64,000 bases of DNA. It comes from an uncultured Planctomycetia bacterium. Lineage in GTDB: Bacteria > Omnitrophota > Gorgyraeia > 1-14-0-20-64-10. Below the pieces are notes generated by a model that worked only from the letters and a program-made list of their open reading frames with translations, had not been told where the DNA came from and did not search any database. Both the position numbers and the translations under genes were made by a program. Of this stretch, positions 6,816 to 62,671 are shown one piece after another (position 1 is the stretch's first letter; each line of letters starts with the position of its first letter). The stretch is taken from contig CAYJWF010000001.1 in assembly GCA_964373805.1 (NCBI GenBank), positions 47,181-111,180 on the forward strand. The letters are read 5' to 3'.

Positions 6816-6920
6816 CCTATAATCTAGGATACCAGGAAACATGACTCTTTTGTCAACTATTTTCATGGGGTCTGACCCCATGGGGTTGCAGGGCGTTTTA
6901 CAATTTGATACAGTACGTCT

Positions 6921-7845: not shown

Positions 7846-7851
7846 GTTTTA

Positions 7852-7890
7852 GGGTCAGACCCCGGCACTTGGGGGTCTGACCCTTTAGAT
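7852..7890 (+). terminator. rho-independent terminator-like hairpin built from two inverted GGGTCAGACCCC units
   Basis: gggtcagacccc ggcacttg ggggtctgaccc followed by tttagatttt, directly after the ACT gene stop. Confidence 0.6.
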
Positions 7891-19826: not shown

Positions 19827-20339
19827 CTAAACCTGAGGGGTCTGACCCCATTTGGTTTTCTTTTCGAGGGTTATAAAACTGAAGGGGTATGGGTTCTCTT
19901 GATCCGGGGAAAAATCCTCCCGAGAGGCTTCCTGCCAGACCGAGCGATCCAAAGAGAATAGAGGTGTATCCCCCGGAAAATCATGGTGGATCAAGGTGAG
20001 GTAGATGCGATTCGCGAACGGCAAGGCCTGCTCAAAGATCTGGCCACCGCCAATGACAAAGACCTCCTCGTCTCTCTCACAGAGGCGAAGCGCTTCCTCC
20101 AAGGAGTGGGCCACCAAGCCGTCTTGAGCTCTGAAATCGCTCTGTCGGGTGACGACCACGTTGGTTCTACCGGGCAAGGCCTTTCCGATCGATTCGTATG
20201 TTTTTCGTCCCACGATGATGGGGTGGTTCATGGTGAGTTGCTTAAAGTGCTTCAGATCCGCGGGCAAGTGCCACGGGAGCCGATTCTTGTTTCCGATGAC
20301 CCCGTTTTGGGAAGCTGCACAAAGGATGGAGATCATCAC
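19827..20339 (-). CDS. folA: dihydrofolate reductase
   Basis: [14 protein letters not shown]...[13 protein letters not shown] signature; last 8 codons plus stop supplied by the 13-mer repeat. Confidence 0.8.
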
Positions 20340-25889: not shown

Positions 25890-27503
25890 ATGCCGACACT
25901 AACCATTGACGGCAAGTCGATCACCGTGCCGGAGGGGACGACCGTCATTCAGGCGGCCGAAAGCCAAGGGATCTTCATCCCTCGGTACTGCTACCATCCG
26001 GGGCTTTCCATCGCGGGGAACTGCCGAATCTGTCTCGTGGAGATCGAGAAGAACCCCAAGCTGCAGATCGCCTGCAACACCCCGGTCGTCGAGGGAATGG
26101 TGGTCCGCACAAACTCCCCTCGGGTTTCGCAGGGCCAACAGTCGGTGCTCGAGTTTCTCCTCATCAACCACCCGTTGGACTGCCCGGTCTGCGACCAGTC
26201 CGGCGAGTGCGACCTTCAGAACTTCTACCTCAAGTACGGGCTGTACGATGCTCGGTTTAGGGAGCAAAAGGTCAAGAAGCCGAAGGTCGTTCCCATTGGC
26301 CCGACGGTGATGTTGGACGCCGAGCGTTGCATCCTCTGCTCCCGATGTGTCCGGTTTACCGATGAGATCACGAAGACCGGGGAGCTCGGGATTTTTAACC
26401 GCGGTGATCAGGCCGAGATCGGGCTGGGGCCGGGCAAGGTTCTGGACAACCGATATTCCGGCAACGTGGTGGACATCTGCCCGGTCGGGGCCTTGACCGA
26501 CCGGGATTTCCGGTTCAAGGCACGGGTCTGGTATCTTTCCACCTCGCCATCGATCTGCAACGGTTGTTCCCAAGGATGCAACATCGAACTCCATGATGTG
26601 CTCGATCGGCCGCATTTGAGCGGGGGCGCCCGGGTGATGCGGATAAAACCGCGGTATAACGCCGAGGTCAATCAATGGTGGATCTGCGATGAGGGCCGCT
26701 ACGGTTATAAATTCATCGACCAGGACCGCCTGCGGAAGGTACTTCGCCATGGAGTGGAGAGTTCCTGGGAAAAGGCGTTGTCGGAGTTGGCCGAGGGCTT
26801 AAGACAGGTCCATCTGGAGGCCGCACCGCATCGATTAGGGGTACTTCCATCGGCCCAACTGACCCTGGAGGAGCTGTTCCTCATCCGAAAGCTGTTCAAG
26901 GATCTTCTCGGGGTGCCGTATTGCACAGCGGATGTCCCAGCCCGGCCAGGGTATGCGGACGATTTTCTCATCAAGGCGGATAAGAACCCCAACACCCGAG
27001 GGGCGACTCTTCTGGGTTTAGCGGGCGAGGGGGTTCCTCCGGCTGCCCAGGTGATCGAGGAGATTCAAGCCGGTCGAATCAGAGCCCTCTGGGTCTTTGG
27101 CCACGATCTCGTGGAGCTGTTCGGGGAGGCCCTGGTTAAGGATTTGGCAAAAAGGCTATGCGTATTTATCTTTCAGGGTTCCAACGTGAACGGAACCGCT
27201 CGCTACGCCCATTGGGTCCTGCCCAGCGCCGTGTATGCCGAGAAGGAGGGGACCTTTGTGAACGTCCACGGGCGCCTCCAGCGGATCTTTCAGGCCTTTG
27301 AACCCCTTCCAGAGGCTCGATCCGATAGCGAGATTCTTCTGGATCTGTTCGATCACCTGAACCTGCCGGTTCCGGGCCGGACGGCAGAAGAGATCTTCCA
27401 CGCGGTGGGGGAGGCGGTACCCATCTTCTCGGGGCTCACCTACGAGAAGATCGGATTGCAGGGAACACAACTGGTGAACTCGTCATTGCGAGGAGCGAAG
27501 TGA
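25890..27503 (+). CDS. nuoG: NADH-quinone oxidoreductase subunit G (short form)
   Basis: N-terminal 2Fe-2S and 4Fe-4S Cys clusters (CYHPGLSIAGNCRICLVE, CPVCDQSGEC, CILCSRCVRF). Confidence 0.8.
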   Translation: MPTLTIDGKSITVPEGTTVIQAAESQGIFIPRYCYHPGLSIAGNCRICLVEIEKNPKLQIACNTPVVEGMVVRTNSPRVSQGQQSVLEFLLINHPLDCPVCDQSGECDLQNFYLKYGLYDARFREQKVKKPKVVPIGPTVMLDAERCILCSRCVRFTDEITKTGELGIFNRGDQAEIGLGPGKVLDNRYSGNVVDICPVGALTDRDFRFKARVWYLSTSPSICNGCSQGCNIELHDVLDRPHLSGGARVMRIKPRYNAEVNQWWICDEGRYGYKFIDQDRLRKVLRHGVESSWEKALSELAEGLRQVHLEAAPHRLGVLPSAQLTLEELFLIRKLFKDLLGVPYCTADVPARPGYADDFLIKADKNPNTRGATLLGLAGEGVPPAAQVIEEIQAGRIRALWVFGHDLVELFGEALVKDLAKRLCVFIFQGSNVNGTARYAHWVLPSAVYAEKEGTFVNVHGRLQRIFQAFEPLPEARSDSEILLDLFDHLNLPVPGRTAEEIFHAVGEAVPIFSGLTYEKIGLQGTQLVNSSLRGAK

Positions 27504-28638: not shown

Positions 28639-29382
28639 ATGCCGCGTAAACGGGAACTGACGTTCTGGGAACGAATTTACCTACCGGAGATTGTCCGGGG
28701 GGTGTGGATTACCTCTCGTCACTTCTTCGTTAATCTCTTTCTCCACACGGCACATCTCTTTGGGCTGTTCAAGGACCGCGCGGCCTCGGTCACCTTTCAG
28801 TATCCGGAGCAGCCCCGACCGTTGGCTCCCCGTTTAAGGACTCGGCATCGGTTAACGGTTCGGCCAGAGCCCCGCGCTGACGCGCGGGACTTTTCTGGAT
28901 TGGCCGCTGACGCAGCGGCTGGCGCTGTCGGAAGCGCCACCACGCGCTCCGGCGCAGCCAGAAACATAGAGGAAGGGACTCCCCGGTGTGTGGCCTGCAT
29001 GCTCTGCGAGACGGTCTGCCCGGCCAAATGCATCACGATCGTCGCTGGAGAGCACCCGGATCCGAACGTGGAGAAATATCCGATTCGGTTCGACATTGAT
29101 TTAGGGGTCTGCGTCTACTGCGGCTACTGTGTCGAGGCCTGTCCGGAGGATGCCATTCGGATGGACACCGAGATCCTGGACATCGCCGCCTATTCTAGGG
29201 CCCAGATGAAGCTGGACATCCATGAGCTCATGGATCCCAAGCTGCGCAAGCCGGTGAACCAGTGTGAACTAAGGTTTCCACACCAATGCGCCCTGCACGG
29301 TGGTCAGATGAAAGGGAACTGGCAAGACGTCTATGGGAAAACGGAACAGGGACTGTCCCCGCAGGGGACTGTCCCTGGCTAA
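28639..29382 (+). CDS. nuoI: NADH-quinone oxidoreductase subunit I with in-frame ~35-aa repeat-encoded insert and C-terminal extension
   Basis: Two 4Fe-4S motifs CVACMLCETVCP and CVYCGYCVEACP; insert PRADARDFSGLAADAAAGAVGSATTRSGAARN between N-terminal segment and first ferredoxin motif. Confidence 0.8.
   Translation: MPRKRELTFWERIYLPEIVRGVWITSRHFFVNLFLHTAHLFGLFKDRAASVTFQYPEQPRPLAPRLRTRHRLTVRPEPRADARDFSGLAADAAAGAVGSATTRSGAARNIEEGTPRCVACMLCETVCPAKCITIVAGEHPDPNVEKYPIRFDIDLGVCVYCGYCVEACPEDAIRMDTEILDIAAYSRAQMKLDIHELMDPKLRKPVNQCELRFPHQCALHGGQMKGNWQDVYGKTEQGLSPQGTVPG
28866..28972. repeat. single copy of the same ~105-bp palindromic element, in-frame inside nuoI
   Basis: gagccccgcgctgacgcgcgggacttttctggattggccgctgacgcagcggctggcgctgtcggaagcgccaccacgcgctccggcgcagccagaaacatagagg. 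Confidence 0.8.
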
Positions 29383-38960: not shown

Positions 38961-39443
38961 GTGAAAAACCGAACTCCCCGATTCGTCGCTATTTTTCTTA
39001 TCTATGCCCTGCTTCTGCCAAGCCCTGCCTTTGCCATGAGGACACAGAGTGCCGATTCCAAAACAGTCGAATCCGGCCTGGAAGAAGCCCTTCGATCCGG
39101 AAAGCCGGATGCCCTTTTCAAATTCGGCACCGCCCGCCTCGCCGGCGCCCTGGGGATATCTCCGGCTGTTCCCTCTTCGAGAGCACCTGCCGTCGTTCCT
39201 CCGCGCTCCTCGACTGTCGCCGCCGGCCTGGAGGAGAGGGCTGTGGTGCAGGAGCGGGTGCGCCGGTTCTTAGCGGGGTTGGAGGAGCAAGCCCCGCAGG
39301 GGATGACCCCTATTCTGATTGGCCGGGCTCTACAAGGGCAGGATGCCCGGTTCCGAGCCTTAGCTGGGTTGGAGCAATTCAGCATTTATCTGGATCCTGG
39401 AGCCAGGGACAGAGACTCTCTCTTTTTACTCAATTTGTCATGA
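38961..39443 (+). CDS. small secreted protein with four [AS]GLE[EQ] motifs
   Basis: GTG start after good RBS; signal peptide (M)KNRTPRFVAIFLIYALLLPSPAFA|MRTQ; mature ~135 aa Ala/Arg/Leu-rich with SGLEE, AAGLEE, LAGLEE, LAGLEQ. Confidence 0.55.
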   Translation: MKNRTPRFVAIFLIYALLLPSPAFAMRTQSADSKTVESGLEEALRSGKPDALFKFGTARLAGALGISPAVPSSRAPAVVPPRSSTVAAGLEERAVVQERVRRFLAGLEEQAPQGMTPILIGRALQGQDARFRALAGLEQFSIYLDPGARDRDSLFLLNLS

Positions 39444-39673
39444 AAGGCTACCGGCATTTCCTTTTTGCCGGTTTGGAGGAGGCACAGGCTCTGCGTCCCT
39501 TAGCGGGTCTAGCCGGTATGACCCTTGACGTGGTTCCTCCGCAGCGATTCGAGGAGCTCATGCCATCCCTTTTGGCCAAGGCCACTGGATTGGAACAGGA
39601 GGCCCTTCGGGCCTGGGAAGGCTTCGGCCAGGTCATGGCCGGTTTGGAAGAGCTCGCCGCCCTCGGCGTGTAA
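39440..39673 (+). CDS. small protein with three xGLE[EQ] motifs, translationally coupled (ATGA) to upstream gene
   Basis: 77 aa MKGYRHFLFAGLEEAQ...ATGLEQEA...MAGLEELAALGV. Confidence 0.5.
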   Translation: MKGYRHFLFAGLEEAQALRPLAGLAGMTLDVVPPQRFEELMPSLLAKATGLEQEALRAWEGFGQVMAGLEELAALGV

Positions 39674-39736
39674 GCCTGCTCGAAGAGGTACCGGGACTGT
39701 ACAGTTTAGGTCAAAGGCGTTGACCCACCTCGTATC

Positions 39737-42623: not shown

Positions 42624-43609
42624 CGGTTATAGAAACCATGGAACGAAAACTGGGATGTGCCACCCGAGACGCGTACGGCCAGACCCTGGTCGAGTTGGGA
42701 AGAAACAATCCCCAGATCGTGGTGTTGGACGCGGATCTCGCCTCCTCCACGAGAACCCGGCTATTTGCCAAGGAGTTCCCGGACCGATTCTTTAATGTGG
42801 GGATCTCAGAGGCCAACATGGTGGGGATGGCCGGTGGGTTAGCTTCCTCTGGGAAAATCCCCTTTATCTCCAGCTTTGCCTGCTTCATGACCTGCAAGGC
42901 GTACGATCAGCTCCGGATGGCGGTGGCGTATCCCCATTTGAACGTCAAGGTGGTCGTTTCCCATGGTGGGATCAGCGTAGGAGAAGATGGAGTCTCCCAG
43001 CAGTCGATCGAAGACGTGGCCCTGATGACGTCGCTTGCCCATTTTACCGTGATCGTCCCGGCCGATGAGCATGCCACGCGGGCGCTGGTGAAGGAGGCCG
43101 CGTCAACGGTGGGGCCCATCTACCTTCGAACCGGAAGGCCCAAGGCCCCTTTGATCTATCAACAGTCGTCGGCCTTTTCCATGGGGAAAGGGAATCTGCT
43201 TCGCCAGGGAAAGGATGTCACCGTGATGGCCAACGGCCTATTGGTCTTTGAAGCGCTGGTGGCGGCCGAGGAGTTGGAGAAGGCAGGGATTTCCGCCGCC
43301 GTGGCGGATCTCCACACGGTTAAGCCGCTGGATGAGTCGCTGATTCTCTCTCAGGCGAAGGCCACCGGGGCGATTGTCACCGCCGAGGAGCACCAGATCT
43401 GGGGCGGCTTAGGTTCGGCGGTAGCCCGCATGGTAGCCCGGACGCATCCCGTTCCGATGGAGTTCGTGGCCATCCAAGACACCTATGCCGAATCGGGCAA
43501 GCCGGAAGAGCTGTTCGAAAAGTACGGGCTTACCTCCCAGCACGTCGTCGAGGCGGTCCGGCGGGTGTTGGAGAGAAAATCTAAAGGGGTCAGACCCCAT
43601 CAGCAATGA
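42620..43609 (+). CDS. transketolase, C-terminal (pyrimidine-binding) subunit
   Basis: Transketolase Pyr and C-terminal domains; last codons KGVRPHQQ encoded by GGGGTCAGACCCC repeat. Confidence 0.8.
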   Translation: MTVIETMERKLGCATRDAYGQTLVELGRNNPQIVVLDADLASSTRTRLFAKEFPDRFFNVGISEANMVGMAGGLASSGKIPFISSFACFMTCKAYDQLRMAVAYPHLNVKVVVSHGGISVGEDGVSQQSIEDVALMTSLAHFTVIVPADEHATRALVKEAASTVGPIYLRTGRPKAPLIYQQSSAFSMGKGNLLRQGKDVTVMANGLLVFEALVAAEELEKAGISAAVADLHTVKPLDESLILSQAKATGAIVTAEEHQIWGGLGSAVARMVARTHPVPMEFVAIQDTYAESGKPEELFEKYGLTSQHVVEAVRRVLERKSKGVRPHQQ

Positions 43610-49637: not shown

Positions 49638-52600
49638 ATGCGAAATCGAATCGTAGCTGGTTTAACCGTTCTAGCATTCCTGCTTGGCCAAACGCCCGCC
49701 TACCCCTTTGACCACGGGGAAGGAGGGAAGCGTCCCGGCTTTGGGTCAGCCGTTCTTCGCCCTCTCAGCCCGGATCAGTCGGATTGGATGAGGCAGGCCA
49801 TTGAAGCCGGTTTGGAGGAGCCCGCCGGAGAAGAAACGCGCTCGTTTGAGGAGCTGCTTTTAGAGATTCTGGACGAGGAGAAAGCCAGAAACCGCTCCAG
49901 CCGGGATTCAAAGAGACTGTTGAATCGGTTTGTGGAGTTTTTTGAAGAGGATGCAAGGAGCGGTTCTTCGGTGCCCGAGACTGTGACTGTGGAGGCAAGG
50001 GCCAGGAGGATCTTATTAAGGCAGACCCCCGGAGTAACCGTGGCTAAATTACGCCAAGAGACAGACAACCCCAGTAAGAGGTTTTCCCTTCGGAACCTTC
50101 CGGGAAGGAAAGGGGAAATGGCCTTGCCTAACGTATGGGTCTTGCGGGAACAGGTAGCAAGGACTGCTCGGATTCTCGAGGGGTTAAAGATTACCCAAGA
50201 CAAGGGGCCTATCTCCGAGCCTCCTACTTTAGAATCAACCCTGACACCTACAGAGTACTTAGCTAGGTTAAGAACGCACCTGTTCTATTCCAACCAACAG
50301 CAACAGTACCTTTCGGTCCCGACGTACGGGGTCGTTGGTTTTTTTGATCCGGAGGAATACCGCCGCGCGGGAGAAGAAACACCCTATGCGGTTTTACCTG
50401 TCTTGGCCGTCCGACAAATCGGCCTTCAGCCTTCCCTCCGAGCCTTTGACTTGGCCATCGGAATGGTGGACAACGGGCTCAAGAAGGTCGAAATGCGAGA
50501 ATCGGGAACCGACCATCCGCCTTTTCTTCTTCTCCACTTTGCAAGGCCACTGATCGATGCCGAAAGCGGCCGGAGAGGTCTGGACCGGCTGGCCGTTTTT
50601 CTGCTCAAGACACCCTGGCCTGAGCTTCCCAAGTTGGCGGGGGATAGACCGCTTGAGACTCTTCCCGATGAGGAATTTCTTAACGCGGTTCTGCAATCTT
50701 TACTGGCGGAGAGAGAACATCTCGAGCAGGACGCGGGACGGCTTCGGCAGATTGCCTTTGAGGAAGGGGAACCGGTTTCTATTCAGATAGAGAAACGGGA
50801 ATCCCTTCTCCGGTTAGCCCTAGCGGAGAGGCTTGTTCCTCGGTCAGGCTATCAACCTTACACGGCAGCCAGCGCCGTGAGACTCGCTCGGTGGATGGGC
50901 CGAACCGTGAGGGAGAGGCAGTTCATCCGACAGCATATGGAGTTGTTGATAGAGGAGGCGAACCTGATCGAGGCCTCCGGAGCTGTGACGTGGAGTCGTT
51001 CGTCTAAAACGGAGAAAGCCATAGAGGCACTTTGGGAGAGGTTTCACCGGTGGAAGAGGCGCACAGGGATTTTGCAAGAGCTTGGGACCTTGGATCTGGC
51101 TGAGATCCCGGGGGCTGCAGAAAGGGTTGAGCAGCTCGACAAGAAGCTTCTGATTCCTAAAAAGGACGTTTCGATGGAAGCTTGGCGGCTGTATCTGCCG
51201 TTGCTTCGGCTGGTTCTTGCCAGAGATTCCCTGGGCCAATGGGTGCTCAACGACCAGGAGGCTACCTACCTGCTCAATCGCATGGAAAAATTCCGTCAGG
51301 AGTTGCTGAATGGGGTTCTCGTGATGGAGAGAACGTTAGCCTCGATGACCCCGGGAGAGGCTCAGGCGATCCTATCTTTTGAACTTAACCAGGCACTTCT
51401 TGACCCGCTGATTCAGAAACCGCTGAAAACCCCTCGGGTGACGCTGCAAAAGGCCCTGCTGAAGGAATGTGAGCGGTTGTTCCAGGTTTCTTTGGGCAGG
51501 TCCCCCACGGCTTTGGCCCTGTTAAGAGACGAGCGAGAGGCTTTATTCAAAGAGGTTCGCCAGGTTCAGGGCAGATTCTGGGCCAGCCTTCTGGGGAACT
51601 TGTCGGAAGCAGAGAAGGCTCTGACGGAGTTCGAGCGACTGGATGAGCGTTTGAGGGCGTTCGGTCCGCGGCTTGCAGGCAGGGACGTAGGGGTGGCTTC
51701 GGAGGGCGGCGGCGTGCCACCCCTACCACTGTCTCAAGAAGGAATTTTGTCTTTCCTAGACAGGATGAAGGAAAAGATAACAACACCAGCGAATTTGGGA
51801 CGACTGGAAAATCCTTCTGGGCTTGATCTGTACCGATCCCTTTTGGATATCGCCCGGCTCGTCCCAGAAGGCCGTGTGAGAGAGGCTTTCGAAAGGAGCC
51901 GGTTGGATGCAGCGATCTCGCTGGAGGAATGGGAGCGGCCCTTTTTGGGTTCGTTCCGGCGGAGACTGGCTGAGCGGATTGCCCAAGAGGTCCTGGAGGA
52001 TGCCCAGACCGCTCCGCCAACACAGCAGAAGGCAGCCGAACAGCGGATCTTAGAGGCAGCGGAACTGGTAGGGGAGTTTCCACAGATCGCAGGGAAACTT
52101 TTAACCACCGATCGGGCCAAGGCGAAGGCTTTACTCTCGGCTTTTACCACGGAATTGTCGGATAAGGGAAACCGGCTCCTTCGAGAATTTGTAGTGGCTA
52201 AGGCCAGCCGGGAACCTTTCCCAGAAGCCAAGGAGGATAAGCTCAGAAAACGTTACCGCAGTCTCCATTCCGGTAGAGGAGTCCCAACGCTGTACGAACG
52301 GGTAGCCTTGGATCTGGATCCCTCCCTTCTTCCCAACCGACCCATTCCTTCCGGATCGGTTTCGCCAACGATTGTAAGGAAGGAAGATTCCACCGCCGGC
52401 CTGGAGGAGAAAAAGGGCGGTTCCATTTTGGATAGGGAAGGGGAGAAGCAGATCCGCGAGGCCACTCAGGCATTAGACGGAGCCCTCCACCCCATTGGGA
52501 ACCCGGTCGTTTTTTTCTCCAAGGTCGAAGCTGCGGTCGTTTTTTTCTCCAAGGTCGAAGCTGCGCTGAAGGCCATTGGAGAAGTGCCTTCTTCTCGATG

Positions 52601-55600
52601 GCCTAACCTTTTTCAAGAGGAGTTTAAACGACTTAGGGATCAATTGAGAATTGCCGAGAGGCATCCTGACCAGAAGGAGTTTGCCCAGAGGATGCGGCAC
52701 TCCCTCTCTGATTTTCGGGACCGGTGGAACAGGTCTCTTGCCCAAGAGGGAATTTCGTCTGGCCGGGAACAAAAGCCCGCCAGTGAGAAAAAGGTCGATG
52801 GGGGAATTATCCCTCAACAGAGGCCTTTGCCTAAGCGACCATCGAAACGGCAGCGGATCATTGAGGAGCTGTCGCGGTTGCCGGATGAGAGAAAACGTCT
52901 CAAATCCCTTCGCCTGGCGGCTGGATTTCGGTCTCCCCATGAGTTAGAAAAAGCAGCCGGGGTGGCCTGGGCGACGGTATCCCGAATGGAATCCGGCAAG
53001 CGAGGAATCGGTCCCCACGTCAGGCGAAAGGTGAAAGGGCTATTGGAAAAGGAGTTGGGTCTACGACTGACGTTTCACTTCCGTTTGATAGAGTTTCCTT
53101 TAGAGCGCAGTGTCAATGTCTTGCCGACGACCGAGGATCGGTTTACTTTCCTCAAGGACGAACTTCTGGGATGGACCAAGCAAGAACTCGCTCAGCGAGC
53201 GAACGCCATCAGGAGTCTCCCTTCTCCTGCTTTGGACACGCGCTACCGCCATGCGCCGATGGATCAAACCCATTTCTGGATTCGGCGTTCCATCCGGGAT
53301 GCTCTGGAACGTGGTTTATCGGAGGAGTTTCAACGCCCTGTACGGCTTGACGGACGTCTTCGGATTGTTACGAATTCGGTTGCCGGGCATCTCAGAGCTT
53401 TGCCCAATGCCGAGGCGCGTCTGACCTGGTTGTTGGAGGAGGAACTTGTCTGGTATCGGAGCGAATTTCTTAGAGAAGCGGGGTTCAAAGAGCATGGGAA
53501 GGTACAGCCCCCTCCGAATCAGCAATCCCAGGCGTTGCAGAGGTGGGAGAAACTCCGTCGCGCGCTCGAGCGAGGTTTGGCCAAGCGGGGAGAGCAGATT
53601 TCTCTTGATGCCAACTTGCTCCCTCAGACCGGCCTGGAGGAACGGAACCAGAGCAGACCCAGTGGGTTGGACCTAGGGCAACAGGTGAGGCGGCTGGTGG
53701 ATACGGCGAAGGGGTTAGCCTCCTCCGGACAGGAAGGGGATGCCCTAGGGGTGCTGGATGAGGCGCTTCGGTTAGATCCTGAGAATGCCCATACCTTGGT
53801 GGAGAAGGCGAGCCTGTTGGACCGACGGCGGAGCTTAAGAAAAGCCCTTCAGGCCATTAATCGAGCCCTCTTGATCGATCGCCGTCGCATCCGTGAACTT
53901 GGGATCGGCCCGATTCGTGGTCGAGATAAATCTGGACGTATTTATCTGGTCATCCGAACGATTCGGGCAAGGATCCTGTTTCACTTAAGTCAACAAGAAA
54001 GGGATCCGACGCAGCGTCTTCATTTCCATCGAGGAGCAGAGAATTCGGTTAAGCAGGCCCTCCAGTGGGATCCGACGGATCCTTGGGCGGTGAAACAAGC
54101 GGTTCAGATCATTCATAGGCGTCCAGTGGAGCACGAGAGCTATGAACAAAGGTGGGAGGATGCCCAGGAAGTGGCGGCTCCCCTCTTGGCCAGAGTGGGC
54201 AGAGGGGAGTTTCGAGAGGAAGATGACCGACTTTCTATTGCACAGATACTTCATGATCTCAAGTGGACCGAGAGAATGGTTACGTTTCTTGAGGAAACGG
54301 TGTTACCCCAGAACCCCGGGTGGCCTCCAGCGTTAAAACTCTTGAGTGAGGGAAAGCGCGATTTAAATAAACCCACCGCTGGTTTGGAGGAGCGGTGGGT
54401 GCGTGTGATTGCCGACGATGCCACGGGTGGCGCGGAGTTGGTGTTGGAGCTCGCCAAGAGAGGTAAGAGGGCCCTTCTCGTCTCTCTGGACACCCCGGAT
54501 AAGCTTCTCAAGCGGTATCGGGTTATTGTGTACAACACCCTGGCTCGGAATCTGTCTCCCCGAGAGACGCGCCTTCGCACAGGCCAGGTCAAGGGTTCCA
54601 TTCTTCAACCGGGAGAGTGGGCCTACCTTAAGATCGATTCGACCCTCCGTGGGAATTGGCTGGATGGGATCATCGCCTGGACCAAGAGGCTTCAACCGGA
54701 GGTGATCTTGGTGGCGCCGGCCATTGTTTCACAGGGAAGAGCGACCCGACAGGGAGTCCATGAACTCCTCGAGGGAGGGAGTTGGATCCCCCTGCATCAA
54801 ACCATGTACCGTGACCTGATTGATCCGGGACTGGTTCAATCAGAATCCAATCTTCAGGAATATCTGCGGCAGCGGGTCTCGGCGAAGGTGGAGCTCCTCA
54901 ACCGAGAGGTCATTGAGCAAGGGTCTGAAGAGGTTCGCAAACGGCTCGCCGGTGTGGAAAAAGGGACTTACCTCGTGGCGGATGCCACCGAGAGCCGACA
55001 CCTTGAATCCATAGCTGAAGCTGTCCATGAGCTTCCCCGACCGATCCTTTGTTCCGGTTCTGCCGGCCTCTTCGGCACCCTGGTCAAGGAAGAGAAATCG
55101 GTTGAATTAGTGCCCTGGGTGGAACAGCTCATCAAAAAGACTTCACGGGGCAGAGGGAAGGTGTTGGTACTGGCCGGCTCTCGTCACCCAAGATCAGACG
55201 AACAGGTCAGAAGAGCTCTCGAGAGTCTTCCGGGTCGCGTGGCCCTGCTGAAGATTTCCACGGAAGGCTTCCAAAGAAGGCAGACTCGAGCTGCTGGGAT
55301 TCGGCGTGCCCAGCGGAAGATCCATCGAGCTTGGCAGCAGGCCCAAGGTGTCATCCTCCAGTTCGAGCCGCCGCGTCTTAAGAAACGGAGCCACCAAACA
55401 CAGCGTGCCATGGCGGAATTTTACCGTGAACTGTTCGGCACAAGGGAGATTCAAGGTCAGCTCGGCCTTCTCGTTGTTTTTGGGGGAGACACCTTGGGTA
55501 CAGTTCTAACGGGCTTCCAAGCCGGGTTTACCGCTACAGGAGAAGTGGCTCCTCAGATCTCTTACGGGCAGCTCATCACCATGGATCGACCGCCTTTGCC

Positions 55601-58145
55601 TCTCATCAGCAAAGCCGGCGGATTTGGGGATCGGGACTTGCTCGTCGATATCCTGACCCAAGCGCGTGCCATCGCCCCTGCCCGCCTGGGGATTACCATG
55701 GGGGATCCGGCGGGGAGCGGGCCGGAGCTGCTCCTTCGGGCTCTCGTCCAAGAACCCACCTTCCTGGAAAAGGCGGAGCTTCTCGTCATTGGCGATGCCA
55801 AGGTCCTCAGGCAAGCGCGGGATTACTTTAAAATTCGAGGGGCTCCTCAAATTCGGGCGATTGCTCGGGTGGAAGAGGCCCGATTTGTTCCAGGGGTTCT
55901 CAATGTGATGGATCTTGAGAATGTCAATTCGGAGATCCTCAAGAAAAGTTTTGGCCCGGTCGGTGTGGATTTGGACGAGGAAACCCGCCGTCATTTTGGC
56001 CAAGCAGCCCTGCAGTCTATCGATGGGGGAATGGAGTTGGCTTCGGCAGGGAAGGTGGATGGCCTGGTCACCCTGCCGGTTACCAAGGAGGATATCGATC
56101 TGGTTTCTCCAGGTTTCCGAGGCCATACCGACCATCTGGCCAAGGGGTTAGGCACCCTCACCGGCTCTGGGGTGGTCACCATCGCCTTGATTTACGGAAA
56201 GCTCCGGGTCCTTCACGTGACGACGCACCTGTCGCTTAAAAAGGTGGTGGAGGAGTTCCAGAAGCCGGAGATTACCGATAAGATTCTAGAGCTCATTCGG
56301 ATAGCAGACCAGATGGGACGTCGCTACTTCGGTTTTAGCCTGGCGAAACGACCTCGCATTGGGGTATTGGGACTCAACCCTCATGCCGGAGAAGGGGGAC
56401 TGCTGGGCACGGAGGATCAAGAACGGATTCAGCCGGCTATTGATCAGGCTTTGGAAGAAGGATTGAACGTTGCGCCACACCCGGTCCCTGCCGACACGGC
56501 CTTTACCAGAGAGGTCCGCAATGGCTACGATTTCATCATCGCCATGTCCCACGATCAGGGCCACGGACCCTTTAAGGCGCTGGCCGGGTTTGAGGGGGTG
56601 AACGTAACCGGGAATCTACCGATTGTTCGTACCAGCCCAGACCACGGAACCGCTCGGCAGGAGGCCTGGAACAGAGATCGGGATGTCTCCCTTACCACGA
56701 GAGGGCTCATCGCCTCCATCCGCTCCGCCATCAAGATGGTCCACGCCGCCCCCCGCTCTGCCTTGATGTCGAAGGAGACTACCGCCGGCCTGGAGGAGAC
56801 CGCCAAGGAAAAAGCGAAAAGGGTCAAGGGGTTGCTAGAGGTGGCTTCCCACTTGGCTTCTGCAGAGAGATTTGAGGATGCCTTGGAGAAAGCTCGGGAG
56901 GCTTTTCGGTTGGATTCCGGCAACACGGCGGTCGTAGTGCAGTTAGCAAGTCACTTGGATCGGATCGGATATCGGGATCAGGATTCTGAGAAAGTCCATA
57001 ATGCGCTAAGCGCTATTGAGGTGGTTCTTGGGAAACTCCCGAAGAATCCGGGCGCGCTAACGGTCAAAGCCAGAATTCTGTTTCATCTCAGTAAACTGGA
57101 GAAGGACGAGAAGAGCCCAGAACGCCACATCGAGGCAGAGAGAATCCTTTGGCGCGTTCTCAGGGAAAATTTCCCAGACCACCGGGCAACGCTTACGCTC
57201 GTCCACGTTATCCATGGTCGTTCTCACGAAGACGCCCGGTTTCAAGGTAAGCATGTCGATGCCCTGCGGGTTGCGTTGCGAATTTTGGAAAGAGGTGAGC
57301 CCCGTCGAATGAAATACCGAGAATGGTTTGCCCAGCTCTTATTCGACTTAGGAGACCTGGGATGGGCAGACCATGTTGCCAGTAAAATGGTTCAACAGGG
57401 TCGTAAGGGACCCCCTTCTTTCCGCCGCCTTGTTGAGAATATCCCAGCCAGGCGCAAGGAGTTCGGTGATATGAAACTCATGTTGCGTGCGGCCTTGAAG
57501 GGGCTCAGCGATTGGGACAGAACGGTTTTCTACCGGGCGCGGAATCGCAGTTTGGGATCCCTCGCTGGCCCTTCGGTTCGTGCTCCGGACTCGCTCGGAG
57601 CCGGTTTGGAGGAGTTGCCGGAGCCGGTGGCGGAGGCGTTGAGGGCGGAGCCGGAGGCGGCGGTGACGAGGGCGGTGGTACTGGATGCGGATGGGATTCC
57701 GCAGGTGGTGGTGACACTTCGGGTACCGGTTGATGTTCCGTCGGCTCCCAAGATTTTGGTGAAGCCGGTGGTGTTGGCGCAGTTGGGGTTGTTGCCAGAT
57801 CAGGTCGTGGGACGATTCCAATCCTGGGGATGGTCGGTGACGTTCATGCCGGCCGATTTAACGGGGAAACGGCTTCTGGGGGAAGTCGACGCTGGCCTTG
57901 AAGAATGGGAGGGCCCCCTTTTCGTGATCGTCGATGAAAAGTGGGAGGAAACGGTTAAGCAACTACCGGCCTACTCCCGTGTGACGGCGGTTGCCTTGGA
58001 TCGATCGTTGGCGCATGCCCTGGATCCTGACCTGCTGGTTTTGTCTCTCTTGCAGGCTTTCAAGAACCTTCCCGGCCGGTTCCTCAGGCCGGAATATTTC
58101 CTTCAGACCGGCTTGGAAGAGATCGTCGTCGCTACCCAGTTGTAG
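49638..58145 (+). CDS. giant (2835-aa) signal-peptide helical/TPR protein with embedded DUF1537 kinase-PdxA dehydrogenase module
   Basis: Single stop-free ORF; N-terminal hydrophobic signal/anchor; Leu/Glu/Arg-rich helical and TPR-like sequence; residues ~1588-2375 carry IADDATGG, VVFGGDTLG (four-carbon acid sugar kinase) and ITMGDPAGSGPEL, NPHAGEGG, MSHDQGHGP (PdxA family); eight xGLEE motifs. Confidence 0.7.
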   Translation: MRNRIVAGLTVLAFLLGQTPAYPFDHGEGGKRPGFGSAVLRPLSPDQSDWMRQAIEAGLEEPAGEETRSFEELLLEILDEEKARNRSSRDSKRLLNRFVEFFEEDARSGSSVPETVTVEARARRILLRQTPGVTVAKLRQETDNPSKRFSLRNLPGRKGEMALPNVWVLREQVARTARILEGLKITQDKGPISEPPTLESTLTPTEYLARLRTHLFYSNQQQQYLSVPTYGVVGFFDPEEYRRAGEETPYAVLPVLAVRQIGLQPSLRAFDLAIGMVDNGLKKVEMRESGTDHPPFLLLHFARPLIDAESGRRGLDRLAVFLLKTPWPELPKLAGDRPLETLPDEEFLNAVLQSLLAEREHLEQDAGRLRQIAFEEGEPVSIQIEKRESLLRLALAERLVPRSGYQPYTAASAVRLARWMGRTVRERQFIRQHMELLIEEANLIEASGAVTWSRSSKTEKAIEALWERFHRWKRRTGILQELGTLDLAEIPGAAERVEQLDKKLLIPKKDVSMEAWRLYLPLLRLVLARDSLGQWVLNDQEATYLLNRMEKFRQELLNGVLVMERTLASMTPGEAQAILSFELNQALLDPLIQKPLKTPRVTLQKALLKECERLFQVSLGRSPTALALLRDEREALFKEVRQVQGRFWASLLGNLSEAEKALTEFERLDERLRAFGPRLAGRDVGVASEGGGVPPLPLSQEGILSFLDRMKEKITTPANLGRLENPSGLDLYRSLLDIARLVPEGRVREAFERSRLDAAISLEEWERPFLGSFRRRLAERIAQEVLEDAQTAPPTQQKAAEQRILEAAELVGEFPQIAGKLLTTDRAKAKALLSAFTTELSDKGNRLLREFVVAKASREPFPEAKEDKLRKRYRSLHSGRGVPTLYERVALDLDPSLLPNRPIPSGSVSPTIVRKEDSTAGLEEKKGGSILDREGEKQIREATQALDGALHPIGNPVVFFSKVEAAVVFFSKVEAALKAIGEVPSSRWPNLFQEEFKRLRDQLRIAERHPDQKEFAQRMRHSLSDFRDRWNRSLAQEGISSGREQKPASEKKVDGGIIPQQRPLPKRPSKRQRIIEELSRLPDERKRLKSLRLAAGFRSPHELEKAAGVAWATVSRMESGKRGIGPHVRRKVKGLLEKELGLRLTFHFRLIEFPLERSVNVLPTTEDRFTFLKDELLGWTKQELAQRANAIRSLPSPALDTRYRHAPMDQTHFWIRRSIRDALERGLSEEFQRPVRLDGRLRIVTNSVAGHLRALPNAEARLTWLLEEELVWYRSEFLREAGFKEHGKVQPPPNQQSQALQRWEKLRRALERGLAKRGEQISLDANLLPQTGLEERNQSRPSGLDLGQQVRRLVDTAKGLASSGQEGDALGVLDEALRLDPENAHTLVEKASLLDRRRSLRKALQAINRALLIDRRRIRELGIGPIRGRDKSGRIYLVIRTIRARILFHLSQQERDPTQRLHFHRGAENSVKQALQWDPTDPWAVKQAVQIIHRRPVEHESYEQRWEDAQEVAAPLLARVGRGEFREEDDRLSIAQILHDLKWTERMVTFLEETVLPQNPGWPPALKLLSEGKRDLNKPTAGLEERWVRVIADDATGGAELVLELAKRGKRALLVSLDTPDKLLKRYRVIVYNTLARNLSPRETRLRTGQVKGSILQPGEWAYLKIDSTLRGNWLDGIIAWTKRLQPEVILVAPAIVSQGRATRQGVHELLEGGSWIPLHQTMYRDLIDPGLVQSESNLQEYLRQRVSAKVELLNREVIEQGSEEVRKRLAGVEKGTYLVADATESRHLESIAEAVHELPRPILCSGSAGLFGTLVKEEKSVELVPWVEQLIKKTSRGRGKVLVLAGSRHPRSDEQVRRALESLPGRVALLKISTEGFQRRQTRAAGIRRAQRKIHRAWQQAQGVILQFEPPRLKKRSHQTQRAMAEFYRELFGTREIQGQLGLLVVFGGDTLGTVLTGFQAGFTATGEVAPQISYGQLITMDRPPLPLISKAGGFGDRDLLVDILTQARAIAPARLGITMGDPAGSGPELLLRALVQEPTFLEKAELLVIGDAKVLRQARDYFKIRGAPQIRAIARVEEARFVPGVLNVMDLENVNSEILKKSFGPVGVDLDEETRRHFGQAALQSIDGGMELASAGKVDGLVTLPVTKEDIDLVSPGFRGHTDHLAKGLGTLTGSGVVTIALIYGKLRVLHVTTHLSLKKVVEEFQKPEITDKILELIRIADQMGRRYFGFSLAKRPRIGVLGLNPHAGEGGLLGTEDQERIQPAIDQALEEGLNVAPHPVPADTAFTREVRNGYDFIIAMSHDQGHGPFKALAGFEGVNVTGNLPIVRTSPDHGTARQEAWNRDRDVSLTTRGLIASIRSAIKMVHAAPRSALMSKETTAGLEETAKEKAKRVKGLLEVASHLASAERFEDALEKAREAFRLDSGNTAVVVQLASHLDRIGYRDQDSEKVHNALSAIEVVLGKLPKNPGALTVKARILFHLSKLEKDEKSPERHIEAERILWRVLRENFPDHRATLTLVHVIHGRSHEDARFQGKHVDALRVALRILERGEPRRMKYREWFAQLLFDLGDLGWADHVASKMVQQGRKGPPSFRRLVENIPARRKEFGDMKLMLRAALKGLSDWDRTVFYRARNRSLGSLAGPSVRAPDSLGAGLEELPEPVAEALRAEPEAAVTRAVVLDADGIPQVVVTLRVPVDVPSAPKILVKPVVLAQLGLLPDQVVGRFQSWGWSVTFMPADLTGKRLLGEVDAGLEEWEGPLFVIVDEKWEETVKQLPAYSRVTAVALDRSLAHALDPDLLVLSLLQAFKNLPGRFLRPEYFLQTGLEEIVVATQL
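52505..52564 (+). repeat. perfect 30-bp in-frame tandem duplication (2 x ggtcgtttttttctccaaggtcgaagctgc) inside giant ORF
   Basis: Encodes VVFFSKVEAA twice; each unit contains a T7 homopolymer (52510-52516, 52540-52546). Confidence 0.9.
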
Positions 58146-58256: not shown

Positions 58257-58613
58257 ATGCATGGGGTAATTGTTATGGAAATTTCATGGGCGGTTACTCG
58301 AGAAAAGATTGAGCAGGCTGTTAAGAGGATCATCCGTTTTGAGCAGCCAAGGAGGGTTGTTTTGTTTGGTTCCGCGGCGCATGGCAATGCCACACTTCAC
58401 AGCGACGCGGATATTCTCGTGGTAACCAAGAAGGAAGTGGACAGCTCTCGTAAGGAGAGTGTTCGGATCCGTCGGCAACTACGTGGTATTTCCATGCCAA
58501 TGGACATCCTGGTGATTTCAGAAAATCGCCTAAAGGCATTGGCCGACCATCCCGGACTCATCTATCGGGAGGCCCTGCGGCATGGAAAAGTCCTCTATGA
58601 GGCCGCAGCCTGA
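58257..58613 (+). CDS. nucleotidyltransferase (MNT antitoxin-like)
   Basis: LFGSAAHGNATLHSDADILVV. Confidence 0.7.
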   Translation: MHGVIVMEISWAVTREKIEQAVKRIIRFEQPRRVVLFGSAAHGNATLHSDADILVVTKKEVDSSRKESVRIRRQLRGISMPMDILVISENRLKALADHPGLIYREALRHGKVLYEAAA

Positions 58614-59007
58614 AAAGGGGATTCCGGGATCGCCAAGAGAATGGCTGATCCACGCTGAAAGTGATCTAAAACTGGCCTGCTTGGCCAGAGATTCCGAAGG
58701 TGTTTTACCGGAACAGAGCTGTTTTCACTCCCAGCAGACGGCTGAGAAAGCCTTGAAAGCTGTTCTCCTTTTCAATAAGATCGATTTCCCCCTTACCCAT
58801 GATATCGAAGAGCTACTTGAACTCGGTAAACAAGGAGGTTTAACGCTGCCCTCCCAGATAGAGGAGGTAGGTAGCCTTACTCCCGATGCCGTGGAGGCCC
58901 GCTACCCTGGTCATTTTGAAGAAATTACATCTCCCGACGTTGATGAGGCAATCCGCGTAGCTGAAGTAGTTCTTCAGTGGGCTAGGGAGATCGTTGGAGA
59001 GTCGTAA
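58582..59007 (+). CDS. HEPN-domain protein
   Basis: FHSQQTAEKALKAVL, EARYPGHF HEPN features; overlaps NTase gene. Confidence 0.7.
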   Translation: MEKSSMRPQPEKGIPGSPREWLIHAESDLKLACLARDSEGVLPEQSCFHSQQTAEKALKAVLLFNKIDFPLTHDIEELLELGKQGGLTLPSQIEEVGSLTPDAVEARYPGHFEEITSPDVDEAIRVAEVVLQWAREIVGES

Positions 59008-59025: not shown

Positions 59026-60000
59026 ATGGTTTCCAGCCGGTCGCCGTACATCAGGCATCTGTTTGTCTGCGTGAATCAGCGGGATCCCGGTGTGACCTGC
59101 TGTTCTCACACTGGCGGGGAGGCGATCCTGGAGGAGCTTAAAGGCTACGTGAAGGCCAACGGATTACAGGGAAAGGTGCGGGTGAGCAAGTCCGGCTGCA
59201 TGGACCTTTGCGCGCAGGGGCCGAACGTGATGGTGGAGCCGGACCACCGGTGGTACCGCCATGTGATGCTGGAGGATGTGGAGAAGATTATTGAGAAAGA
59301 GCTTAAACCGCTCATGCAAAAGGGGTCAGACCCCTTCTGGTCTCTATCGGTGCCAGGTCTTAGACCTGGCACCGATTTCCCATCTGCCCAGCCGATCCGC
59401 GCCTTTCTCTTTGATCTGGGCAACGTCTTGGTTCAGTTTGACCACCTGCGGGCGGCCGAGCGGATCGCGGCCAACGCGAAGGTAACCCCAGAAGAGCTGT
59501 ACCGGCTGTTCTTTGAGTCTCCCCTGATCATCGAGCACGATGAAGGCAAGATCTCGACCGCCACCTTTTTCGAACGGTTGAAGGCCCAGATTGGGTTATC
59601 CCTGTCTTTTGGAGAATTCTTGGAAATCTGGAATGGGATCTTCACCGAGAATCGGCCGGTCGCCCAATTGGTCCGACGGTTGCTCGCCCAGTACCCCTGT
59701 TATCTCATCTCGAATACCAACCGGCCCCATTTCGAACATTGCGTTGAACGTTATCCGGTGCTCAAGGAGCTCACCGGGCGGATCTTATCCTATGAAGTGG
59801 GGGTGTTGAAGCCGCATCCGAAGATTTATCGCCGGGCATTGGAGCTGGCCCAGATACCGCCTTCCCAGATCTTCTACGTGGACGATCGAGCCGATCTCAT
59901 TGAGGCCGGTCGGTCGATCGGGTTCCAGGTGCATCGGTTTACCGACACCGAGGGACTTCTTTCCGAGTTGAAGGCCAAGGGGATCAACCACGGAGTTTAG
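59026..60000 (+). CDS. fusion ORF: thioredoxin-like [2Fe-2S] ferredoxin domain + HAD-family hydrolase, joined through palindromic repeats
   Basis: N-terminal CxxC...C...C ferredoxin-like (CCSHTGGE...SGCMDLCAQGPNV); C-terminal FLFDLGNVLV...DD HAD motifs; linker KGSDPFWSLSVPGLRPGT encoded by GGGGTCAGACCCC and GGTGCCAGGTC-tta-GACCTGGCACC; possible internal GTG start at 59350. Confidence 0.55.
   Translation: MVSSRSPYIRHLFVCVNQRDPGVTCCSHTGGEAILEELKGYVKANGLQGKVRVSKSGCMDLCAQGPNVMVEPDHRWYRHVMLEDVEKIIEKELKPLMQKGSDPFWSLSVPGLRPGTDFPSAQPIRAFLFDLGNVLVQFDHLRAAERIAANAKVTPEELYRLFFESPLIIEHDEGKISTATFFERLKAQIGLSLSFGEFLEIWNGIFTENRPVAQLVRRLLAQYPCYLISNTNRPHFEHCVERYPVLKELTGRILSYEVGVLKPHPKIYRRALELAQIPPSQIFYVDDRADLIEAGRSIGFQVHRFTDTEGLLSELKAKGINHGV
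59322..59373. repeat. GGGGTCAGACCCC 13-mer plus GGTGCCAGGTC-tta-GACCTGGCACC hairpin inside fusion ORF linker
   Basis: Seen directly at 59322-59334 and 59349-59373. Confidence 0.75.
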
Positions 60001-61837: not shown

Positions 61838-62671
61838 TTGGGCGCCATCCCCATTCGCATTGGGCATAGCCCGGATCCGGACGATGCCTTTCTCTTTTAC
61901 GCCCTGACCCACGGAAAGCTGGACCTGCCCGGTTTTAGGATGACTCACCTGCTGGAAGGGATCGAGCAACTCAACCAACGGGCCTTGAGTGGGGAACTGG
62001 AGATGACGGCCATCTCCTTGGCCGCCTACCCGTATTGTGCCGATCGGTATCTGCTTCTGACGACCGGAGCCAGCGTCGGGGACCGGGTGGGCCCGATGGT
62101 GGTGGCGAAGGAGGAGCTCTCCCTCGAGACTCTTCAAAAGGTTCCGGTCGCGGTGCCGGGTCGGTTGACCACCGCGACCCTCCTGCTCCAGTTGGCCGTG
62201 GGGCAAATTCAACAGGAAGTTCTCCCTTTCGATCAAATCCTCCCGGCGGTCAAAGAAGGCCGCGCGGCCGCCGGGGTCCTCATCCATGAAGGACAACTGA
62301 CGTACCCCGAGTGGGGATTAAAGAAGGTTCTGGATTTAGGCCAGTGGTGGTGGCAGAAGACCGGGCTTCCGGTTCCTTTAGGGGTGAACGTGATCCGGCG
62401 GGATCTGGGAGCCGCGGTCATCGATCGGCTGAACCGAGCCTTTCGAGAGAGCCTCGGGTACGCCTTCGCCCATCGCGAGGAGGCTTTTTCATACGCCTTG
62501 AAATTTGGACGGGGGCTCGATCGGGATCGAGCCAACTTATTTATCGGGAGGTACGTCAACCGCTTCAGCCTCGATGCCCGATCGGAGGCGGCGGCCGCCA
62601 TGCAGCGGCTCTTGGATTGGGGTGCCGAGGCCGGATTCGTTCCCCATCGGGTCCCGATCGAATTCGTTTGA
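61838..62671 (+). CDS. mqnD: 1,4-dihydroxy-6-naphthoate synthase (futalosine pathway)
   Basis: IGHSPDPDDAFLFYAL N-terminus and overall MqnA/MqnD-family pattern. Confidence 0.6.
   Translation: MGAIPIRIGHSPDPDDAFLFYALTHGKLDLPGFRMTHLLEGIEQLNQRALSGELEMTAISLAAYPYCADRYLLLTTGASVGDRVGPMVVAKEELSLETLQKVPVAVPGRLTTATLLLQLAVGQIQQEVLPFDQILPAVKEGRAAAGVLIHEGQLTYPEWGLKKVLDLGQWWWQKTGLPVPLGVNVIRRDLGAAVIDRLNRAFRESLGYAFAHREEAFSYALKFGRGLDRDRANLFIGRYVNRFSLDARSEAAAAMQRLLDWGAEAGFVPHRVPIEFV

Follow-up and report, generated by a model that had tools for sequence, protein, structure and literature searches.

REP-like palindromes in an Omnitrophota-type genome: probable late residents in the permissive linker of an old ferredoxin-HAD hydrolase fusion

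Repetitive extragenic palindromes (REPs) are dispersed stem-loops of 20-40 bp that lie mostly between unidirectional or convergent open reading frames (ORFs), often as inverted pairs, and classical REPs carry a GTAG or CGTC tetranucleotide at one end (PMC3733652). Intragenic copies are an in-frame minority. They have been described as 'REP-decorated proteins' (Di Nocera et al., 2013), in which they add about 10-30 residues, sometimes at the same site in orthologues, and they occur in several phyla including the Planctomycetes-Verrucomicrobia-Chlamydiae (PVC) bacterium Opitutus terrae (PMC3733652). Rickettsia palindromic elements (RPEs) are palindromic repeats that sit in frame in unrelated housekeeping genes, at sites compatible with the protein fold and with a conserved peptide for each family, and SPRITE of Streptococcus pneumoniae is listed among terminator-like dispersed repeats (PMC10969869). 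Here, we describe two palindromes in a window of 64,000 nt from an uncultured Planctomycetia bacterium with the GTDB lineage Omnitrophota (contig CAYJWF010000001.1, assembly GCA_964373805.1); coordinates refer to this window unless another locus is named. Both palindromes lie in the linker of one ORF that joins a ferredoxin to a hydrolase of the haloacid dehalogenase (HAD) type. An initial annotation had taken them for elements at a former gene boundary that are now read through as peptide. We find that the repeat families to which they belong are dispersed, are usually located at gene junctions, and are present in frame in several proteins with one preferred frame. The reading that we consider probable is that REP-like repeats were secondarily fixed in the permissive linker of an old fusion and are translated there as a flexible peptide.

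The fusion ORF has no stop codon from end to end. The same gene, both palindromes included, is identical in three further assemblies (runs ERR4904390, ERR4904391 and ERR4904392), and an assembly artefact or a hidden stop codon at the domain boundary is therefore excluded. The N-terminal half (aa 10-93) matches NCBIfam model NF041613 with 48.7 bits, under the equivalog cut-off, and PF01257 with a sub-threshold 22.4 bits (cut-off 24.8). In an alignment of 26 relatives C15, C58 and C62 do not vary, and C25 hardly does. With two N-terminal cysteine ligands and a later CxxxC, this half is a predicted thioredoxin-like [2Fe-2S] ferredoxin. The C-terminal half (aa 124-310) reaches 49.6 bits with PF00702 (cut-off 26.4) and 42.1 bits with TIGR01509 (cut-off 29.4), and PF13419 matches as well, the two Pfam models spanning aa 124-302. 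Its best specific NCBIfam model is PRK09456, the YihX-type glucose-1-phosphatase, with 93 bits against an equivalog cut-off of 295. Because this score stays below the cut-off we assign no substrate, and we call this half a HAD-IA hydrolase at the family level, YihX-like. The domain architecture given in the initial annotation thus agrees with the NCBIfam and Pfam matches.

The linker was delimited between the conserved ...KPL and IRAFLFDLGNV, and the two palindromes encode K99-F104 and S108-D117 within the stretch KGSDPFWSLSVPGLRPGTDF. Palindrome 1, GGGGTCAGACCCC at 59322-59334, extends to 8-nt arms at 59320-59336. Palindrome 2, GGTGCCAGGTC-TTA-GACCTGGCACC at 59349-59373, extends to the perfect arms ATCGGTGCCAGGTCT and AGACCTGGCACCGAT at 59346-59360 and 59362-59376, so that both are longer than first annotated. 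A hairpin of this kind was matched in none of 100 shuffles, and the 91-nt linker RNA folds with -41.1 kcal/mol compared to -23.8 +/- 3.0 kcal/mol in dinucleotide shuffles (z = -5.7). An AlphaFold2 model based on the 26-sequence alignment has a mean pLDDT (predicted local distance difference test) of 86.9 with both domains confident (ferredoxin mostly 78-94, HAD above 90), and values fall below 50 at residues 101-118, which are the palindrome-encoded residues of the linker. This is consistent with disorder and fits a flexible tether. The two palindromes do not form one composite element, since the hairpin is present elsewhere without an adjoining copy of the 13-mer core of palindrome 1. Several other identities of the hairpin were considered and rejected. 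The window copy has no T-tract (it is followed by GATTTCCCATC), was not called terminator-like in a terminator scan and does not qualify as an intrinsic terminator, and the scan found no promoter-like site near it. The CTGGCAC in its stem looks like the -24 box of a sigma-54 promoter, but no TTGC -12 element follows it in the window or in any other copy. Among known RNA families the sole match was mir-3158 with E = 0.48, which is below threshold and attributed to chance.

Comparison with relatives bears directly on the age of the fusion. Database searching yielded about 100 ferredoxin-HAD proteins of full length (304-355 aa, 46-84% identity), and the few that are named by source belong to Candidatus Omnitrophica or Omnitrophota. 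Their alignment shows two conserved domains and, between them, a hypervariable linker whose sequence and length both differ. A fusion is also seen in the closest relative (P0002, locus L001; 83% identity, same downstream gene order), which lacks both palindromes. The coding DNA on either side of its linker can be aligned well, and the linker itself (48 nt, 16 aa) is unrelated in sequence and holds a different, imperfect hairpin. In a neighbour-joining tree of the HAD domain, stand-alone HADs (36-46% identity) lie outside, and more than 80 fused proteins form one clade with two deep branches, both fused; split forms and HADs without a ferredoxin are found here and there inside this clade. Although the tree was built from distances and carries no support values, the parsimony case for an ancestral fusion is overwhelming. 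We also scored palindrome signatures on the linker peptides of 84 fused relatives, which range from 4 to 42 aa. Palindrome-type motifs are found in 3 of the 37 linkers of 4-13 aa and in 26 of the 37 linkers of at least 16 aa, where the signatures are GSDP/VSDT, VPG..PGT, PELVEG/PSTSSGRT, EIAS...ARND and SPxGGEGxGEG. Judged by tree and census, the fusion is older than the palindromes, and linker length correlates with repeat content.

A few loci are split. At L033 the end of the ferredoxin ORF and the start of the HAD ORF overlap as ATGA, and there is no element. At L102 (1400-1580) and L103, which come from two assemblies, a ferredoxin of 112 aa and a HAD of 220 aa overlap as ATGA within palindrome-derived sequence; the junction reads PSTGSG-stop/MSGVSKGE, and fused relatives read through it as PSTGSGRT. 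At L104 the ferredoxin is wholly absent. These junctions suggest that the site can toggle between a fused and a split state, that repeat-derived sequence can supply both stop and start, and that the split states are derived rather than ancestral. At L102/L103 a repeat may have mediated fission of the gene, with the two parts coupled in translation. Such overlaps, the predominance of the elements at gene boundaries and the presence of the same element type in the NuoE-NuoF linker are what can be said for the initially proposed history, according to which separate neighbouring ferredoxin and HAD genes were fused when palindromes at their boundary lost the stop and were read through, leaving the linker as a fossil intergenic spacer. 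The split forms are nested in fused clades, though, the sister gene is a fusion that has neither of these elements, many of the more than 80 fused relatives have linkers of 4-13 aa without a palindrome, the NuoE-NuoF fusion is present in every relative listed, and the hairpin also lies within single domains, for example in RibF, where no gene boundary ever existed. Because fused relatives without the repeats exist (L001, L022 and L023 among others), a read-through origin is not supported; we regard it as largely refuted and very improbable. What stands of the initial claim is that the elements are translated in the linker and that other copies lie mainly at gene boundaries; that they created the fusion does not.

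The linkers of relatives were further inspected as DNA. Every linker of at least 45 nt examined in this way contains one or more strong hairpins, unrelated in sequence, with folding energies between -24 and -52 kcal/mol (L001, -29.4; L026, -37.7; L027, -42.2; L028, -50.4; L031, -24.8; L034, -24.3; L106, -45.1; L107, -41.8; L108, -52.0 kcal/mol). No hairpin was found in the linkers of 18-39 nt (L022-L025, L029 and L030; 18 nt in L022 and L023). P0087, a protein of the deep clade with 47% identity, has a hairpin of the window's family in its linker too, placed differently and in the form of the compensatory variant GGTGCCAGGCC-TCA-GGCCTGGCACC, which still reads VPGLRPGT. Its neighbours in the tree are without that hairpin, and an independent acquisition would be the simplest reading. 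The recurrence of unrelated strong hairpins in one linker, together with the very stable fold in the window and the compensatory changes that keep the stems among copies, could also be explained if hairpins at the domain boundary were selected RNA or DNA structures, acting in ribosome pausing for Fe-S folding or cluster loading, or in RNase processing and mRNA stability that tune the two halves. However, the 37 of 84 relatives with short, hairpin-free linkers indicate that the protein family needs no such structure, the hairpins belong to genome-wide repeat families with other copies in intergenic DNA and in the loops of enzymes that are not related to this protein, and REP-type repeats are equally expected to covary. 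We consider a selected structure unlikely.

The hairpin is also present in other proteins. At L009 (4374-4398) the hairpin lies in frame within the flavokinase domain of RibF, and Pfam aligns 132 residues continuously to a profile of 124 positions across the insert. The RPTF-LEVHLF loop of this protein is very variable among 120 RibF relatives (P0241-P0360), with an aligned segment of 38-87 residues. A second lineage has the same VPGLRPGT loop insert (P0280, confirmed in DNA at L110, 2052-2076), P0293 has VPGLRPGT at another site, and other palindrome-type inserts in RibF loops read GVSDT, GGVRPLL..KRGLTP and SPxGGEDKGEGGEG. For Omnitrophota we note this loop, in addition to the ferredoxin-HAD linker, as a hot spot where palindromic repeats are found in frame. 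Additional copies follow the membrane anchor of a HlyD-type adaptor (L017) and lie inside a DDAH/amidinotransferase-like enzyme (L006). In all seven hairpin copies within real proteins (L009, P0280, P0293, L017, L006 and the ferredoxin-HAD proteins of the window and P0087) the frame is the one that yields VPGLRPGT, and the alternative frames GARSxTWH and CQVxDLAP do not occur in the 360 collected proteins. This single-frame pattern is what selection on translated insertions would give. GEDPRWSLPS in P0012 was considered as a homologue of palindrome 1; this is unproven, and the DNA there forms other hairpins (CATCCTCAC/GTGAGGATC and CCCTCGA/TCGAGGG).

The GTG at 59350 within the hairpin, pointed out before as a possible start, is indeed in frame with the ORF start ((59350-59026)/3 = 108). 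If the HAD were translated from this codon or from another internal start, with the hairpin regulating initiation, the ORF would hold two functional cistrons. The GTG would leave 15 aa before IRAFLFDLGNV, within the 1-25 aa of stand-alone and split HADs, and the split orthologues show that the halves can work as separate proteins; the ferredoxin half has no stop codon of its own, however, and the same hairpin is plainly internal to single-domain proteins elsewhere. Because no Shine-Dalgarno-like sequence lies within 20 nt upstream of the GTG and the codon is base-paired in a perfect 15-bp stem, an internal start is most unlikely, and we assume that the translated product would be the full-length fusion.

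The hairpin belongs to a wider family. Its exact core was scanned in a species-representative genome collection (one genome per species) and was found in 17 stretches. Fifteen are from Omnitrophota-type metagenome-assembled genomes (MAGs; at least eight, with up to four copies per incomplete MAG), and the other two, from Pseudomonas and Gaiellales, are probably chance matches. Three of the hairpin-bearing MAGs are labelled Candidatus Omnitrophota and five are from project ERP125453 (four 'uncultured Planctomycetia', one 'uncultured bacterium'). The consensus is AAAGGTGCCAGGTC-TWA-GACCTGGCACCTTT, with a size of 25-35 nt and a stem of 9-15 bp. The outer stem GGTGCCAGG/CCTGGCACC is constant, and inner stem and flanks vary between copies yet stay complementary, i.e. 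they covary. A typical genomic copy consists of an A-tract, a GC-rich stem-loop and a T-tract (AAAGGTGCCAGGTCTWAGACCTGGCACCTTT) at a gene junction. In other MAGs copies are mostly intercistronic, in several cases with a Shine-Dalgarno motif and ATG following after 4-21 nt, and the hairpin and the 13-mer families are found together in the same MAGs. At L005 (2258-5331) a stretch of 3 kb has four hairpin variants (inner stems TC-TGA-GA, TC-TTA-GA, TTTAAA and ATTAAT), which enclose two ORF6N-domain paralogues and a ComM-like gene. This layout is REPtron-like, but the protein is no known transposase.

The window contains a single copy of the large hairpin and many of the small palindrome. GGGGTCWGACCCC with at most one mismatch has 10 strand-matches against 0.25 expected, and the covarying family GGNGTCWGACNCC has 6 perfect palindromes against 0.07 expected, or 8 copies at 6 loci if the imperfect pair 7851/7872 is included, which gives a density of about 1 per 8 kb. 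According to the Pfam annotation of neighbouring ORFs these copies sit mostly between genes or at gene ends (Table 1). In the 602-aa NuoE-NuoF fusion ORF, an inverted pair of GGTGTCWGACACC palindromes makes up almost the whole linker. Relatives of this protein are fused in 120 of 120 cases among the matches listed (67-79% identity), and the linker length is conserved. Some of their linkers read VSDT..VSDT (P0124) or contain two to three GSDP units (P0132, P0150, P0152), and palindrome 1 and the NuoE-NuoF linker of the window are read in this frame as well. The initial annotation had seen the same pattern at nuoEF as in the ferredoxin-HAD ORF; the same element type does fill this linker, whereas the consistently fused relatives with their conserved linker length speak against a former gene boundary.

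The conserved length of the NuoE-NuoF linker, kept while VSDT or GSDP palindromes are present in several relatives, is also an argument for another view, in which the palindromes would be sequence-specific signals, uptake-like or protein-binding, that accumulate by mutation and biased fixation under low constraint and are not inserted mobile elements. The occurrence of the 13-mer as inverted pairs at gene ends, the frame bias of coding copies and the copy in the divergent Rrf2/def promoter region fit this view, and such traits are reminiscent of uptake sequences and of HIP1. The hairpin of 25-35 nt, in contrast, adds length, both in the RibF loop and in the window linker, which is 11 aa longer than that of the sister gene, and a density of about 1 per 8 kb is well under that of classical uptake sequences. 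As an account of both families the signal model is doubtful, but uptake-like or HIP-like accumulation stays a rival for the 13-mer.

Table 1. Features of the ferredoxin-HAD fusion ORF and copies of the small palindrome family in the window.
Feature	Position	Strand	Basis
Ferredoxin-HAD fusion ORF, 324 aa	59026-60000	+	ORF list, Pfam/NCBIfam domains, identical in three other assemblies, >80 fused homologues
Predicted thioredoxin-like [2Fe-2S] ferredoxin domain, aa 10-93, Cys15, Cys25/26, Cys58, Cys62	59053-59304	+	NCBIfam NF041613/NF041612, sub-threshold PF01257
Inter-domain linker, 27 aa / 81 nt, MQKGSDPFWSLSVPGLRPGTDFPSAQP, hypervariable in family	59314-59394	+	Bounded by conserved anchors PL and IRAFLFDLGNV
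Palindrome 1, AAGGGGTC-A-GACCCCTT, GGNGTCWGACNCC family, read K-G-S-D-P-F	59320-59336		Sequence inspection, family scan
Palindrome 2, perfect hairpin, 15-nt arms, 1-nt centre, core GGTGCCAGG...CCTGGCACC, read (S)VPGLRPGT(D)	59346-59376		Fold, shuffles, fifteen further copies
HAD-IA hydrolase domain, YihX-like, motif I FDLGNV	59395-59955	+	PF00702 aa 124-299, PRK09456 aa 127-309, pLDDT >90
19-nt perfect palindrome CATGGGGTCTGACCCCATG, divergent spacer of Rrf2-family regulator and peptide deformylase (def)	6864-6882		Family scan
Inverted pair AGGGTCAGACCCC-ggcacttg-GGGGTCTGACCCT, junction of ACT-domain gene and peroxiredoxin gene	7851-7884		Family scan
Copy spanning the 3' tail of dihydrofolate reductase (DHFR) and the annotated start of an aconitase-family gene (both genes on - strand)	19837-19849		Family scan
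Pair GGTGTCTGACACC-(17 nt)-GGTGTCAGACACC, NuoE-NuoF linker KTVSDTSQLREAVSDTT in ORF 24078-25886	24533-24575		Family scan
Copy in a transketolase-type gene, whose C-terminal tail it encodes, directly ahead of a metallo-beta-lactamase-fold gene with an ATGA overlap at its start	43586-43598		Family scan

Taken together, the ferredoxin-HAD protein is an old fusion that an Omnitrophota-type lineage inherited, and its linker is probably under almost no constraint in sequence or length. This lineage has dispersed, REP-like short palindromes of several families that are normally intercistronic or at gene ends, and we propose that intragenic copies persist only where the frame is kept and a harmless peptide is encoded. 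Two such copies, the 13-17 nt GGGGTCAGACCCC palindrome and the 31-nt GGTGCCAGG...CCTGGCACC hairpin, would have become fixed in the linker, where translation would give KGSDPF ... SVPGLRPGTD, a stretch rich in Gly, Pro and Ser and predicted to be disordered. The window linker has 27 aa; that of the sister gene has 16 aa, and many relatives have 4-13 aa. As to the arrival of the copies, we infer insertion or recombination and not point mutation, which is likely for the 31-nt hairpin and less settled for the 13-mer. Insertion of the hairpin is well supported because RibF proteins differ in length where it occurs, as do the linkers of the window and the sister gene. For the protein, the window copies are presumably near-neutral.

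Several points weigh against this proposal. The linker of the sister gene L001 holds another palindrome and is not an empty site, so that the locus offers no clean before/after pair. Palindromes fill the NuoE-NuoF linker, and because the length of that linker is constant among relatives, the 13-mers at least may come by substitution or conversion instead of insertion. No transposase or mobilising function was identified, with no systematic scan for REP-associated tyrosine transposases (RAYT, PF01797) made of the window or the loci. A target-site duplication is not visible, the flanks of 18 hairpin copies being complementary and not direct repeats. Copy numbers derive from a 64-kb window, 8-kb loci and incomplete MAGs. 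Finally, neutrality is assumed, and an mRNA hairpin as strong as that in the window may have a role. A more far-reaching idea is that REP-like palindromes actively drive changes of protein architecture in Omnitrophota: they would repeatedly enter the same linkers and loops (ferredoxin-HAD twice, the RibF loop, NuoE-NuoF), set linker length and flip a fusion into coupled cistrons (L102/L103), and the mRNA hairpins could be co-opted for pausing or for decoupling the two halves. We regard this as speculative and rather improbable.

Further palindromes were observed in and around these genes. The 6864-6882 palindrome is flanked by CAT/ATG, which could serve as start codons on either strand. At L108 (3047-3073, MAG CAYJSX01) a 27-nt perfect palindrome, AACAATTGGGGTCTGACCCCAATTGTT, with the core of the 13-mer family is located at the 3' end of the ferredoxin-HAD gene, and its core provides the TGA stop (...TIGV-stop). 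More perfect palindromes with stems of at least 9 nt lie in or at the starts of window ORFs (22692-22712, 26480-26505, 62514-62533, 16239-16256 and 29218-29235), among which are a NuoD-like ORF, the ORF downstream of nuoEF and a VitK2_biosynth ORF. In the ferredoxin domain of some relatives a second site is variable by insertion. It lies between CC(S/A)x and GGGE (aa 26-31 of the window protein) and adjoins a cluster-ligand cysteine, and P0011, P0016, P0018 and P0021 have Gly/Ser/Ala-rich inserts of 13-31 aa there, such as GGASGAASASGSHAAEGRSGFASSGESHAH. The slot directly upstream of the ferredoxin-HAD gene is occupied by a different toxin-antitoxin pair in each relative, a nucleotidyltransferase and HEPN in the window (58257-59007), a PIN-domain gene in L001 (209-610) and PhdYeFM with PIN in L106 (3298-4004). 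Downstream, the order of a hypothetical gene, Transglut_core2, VitK2_biosynth and SDR is conserved. Upstream, the peptide (T/A)AGLEE occurs 8 times at apparent module boundaries of a 2835-aa multi-module ORF (49638-58145), whose modules include HTH, TPR, DUF1537-like kinase and PdxA-like domains, and at least 4 times in small, apparently frameshifted ORFs at 39.2-39.7 kb (39040-39700). Its codons vary synonymously, which identifies it as a peptide-level motif and rules out a translated DNA repeat.

Most of the length variation of the ferredoxin-HAD linker (4-42 aa, 84 orthologues) can be attributed to palindromic repeats that keep the frame and belong to the repertoire of the respective genome. 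One and the same hairpin appears in enzymes that are otherwise unrelated, and in each of them it is read in the single frame that yields a Pro/Gly-rich peptide. The locus is a concrete case of dispersed palindromes shaping proteins in a poorly studied, uncultured phylum. For annotation this means that low-complexity GSDP, VSDT, VPGLRPGT, PSTSSGRT and ARNDG in MAG proteins are repeat-derived, and that gene splits and fusions at repeat sites may be genuine polymorphisms and not errors.

Short over-represented motifs that occur both between and within genes are also known as the DNA uptake sequence (DUS) of Neisseria, the uptake signal sequence (USS) of Pasteurellaceae and the highly iterated palindrome HIP1 of cyanobacteria, which form inverted, terminator-like pairs at gene ends. 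Their coding copies gather in poorly constrained protein segments and have preferred reading frames. Uptake sequences have a density of about 1 per kb, and a competent host preferentially takes up DNA that carries the motif. The motifs described here differ in being perfect palindromes, in a density that is about tenfold lower than that of uptake sequences and, for the larger hairpin, in behaving as an indel; that the core GTCTGA resembles the DUS core is presumably coincidental. Compared to REPs, the hairpin of 25-35 nt has the size of a stem-loop of that class, and the location mostly at gene junctions and the inverted pairs (7851-7884, 24533-24575) are REP-like as well. The palindrome of 13-17 nt is below the usual REP range, and as a 13-mer it is shorter than any REP described. 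Neither AAAGGTGCCAGGTC-TWA-GACCTGGCACCTTT nor GGNGTCWGACNCC has a GTAG or CGTC tag, and Omnitrophota lie outside the phyla surveyed in the REP study (PMC3733652). A literature search for palindromic repeats of Omnitrophota gave no relevant result. In copy number, we count 8 of the 13-mer in 64 kb, and for the hairpin one in the window and up to four exact cores per incomplete MAG. With RPEs the elements share in-frame insertion with a conserved peptide, VPGLRPGT, but RPEs measure about 100-150 bp and encode 30-50 aa, whereas those described here have 13-35 bp and 4-11 aa, come from another phylum and are mainly intercistronic instead of intragenic. Transposable elements of the miniature inverted-repeat type (MITEs), 50-500 bp long, have terminal inverted repeats, an internal region and target-site duplications, in contrast to the simple hairpins of less than 40 bp found here. 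Typical hairpin copies resemble a bidirectional intrinsic terminator at gene junctions and in this are similar to terminator-like repeats such as SPRITE, but the window copy is without a T-tract and many copies lie directly upstream of a ribosome-binding site in apparent operons. In our assessment the phenomenon as such is known, with intragenic REPs and RPEs as precedents; Omnitrophota would be a new phylum for it, and no new mechanism is implied.

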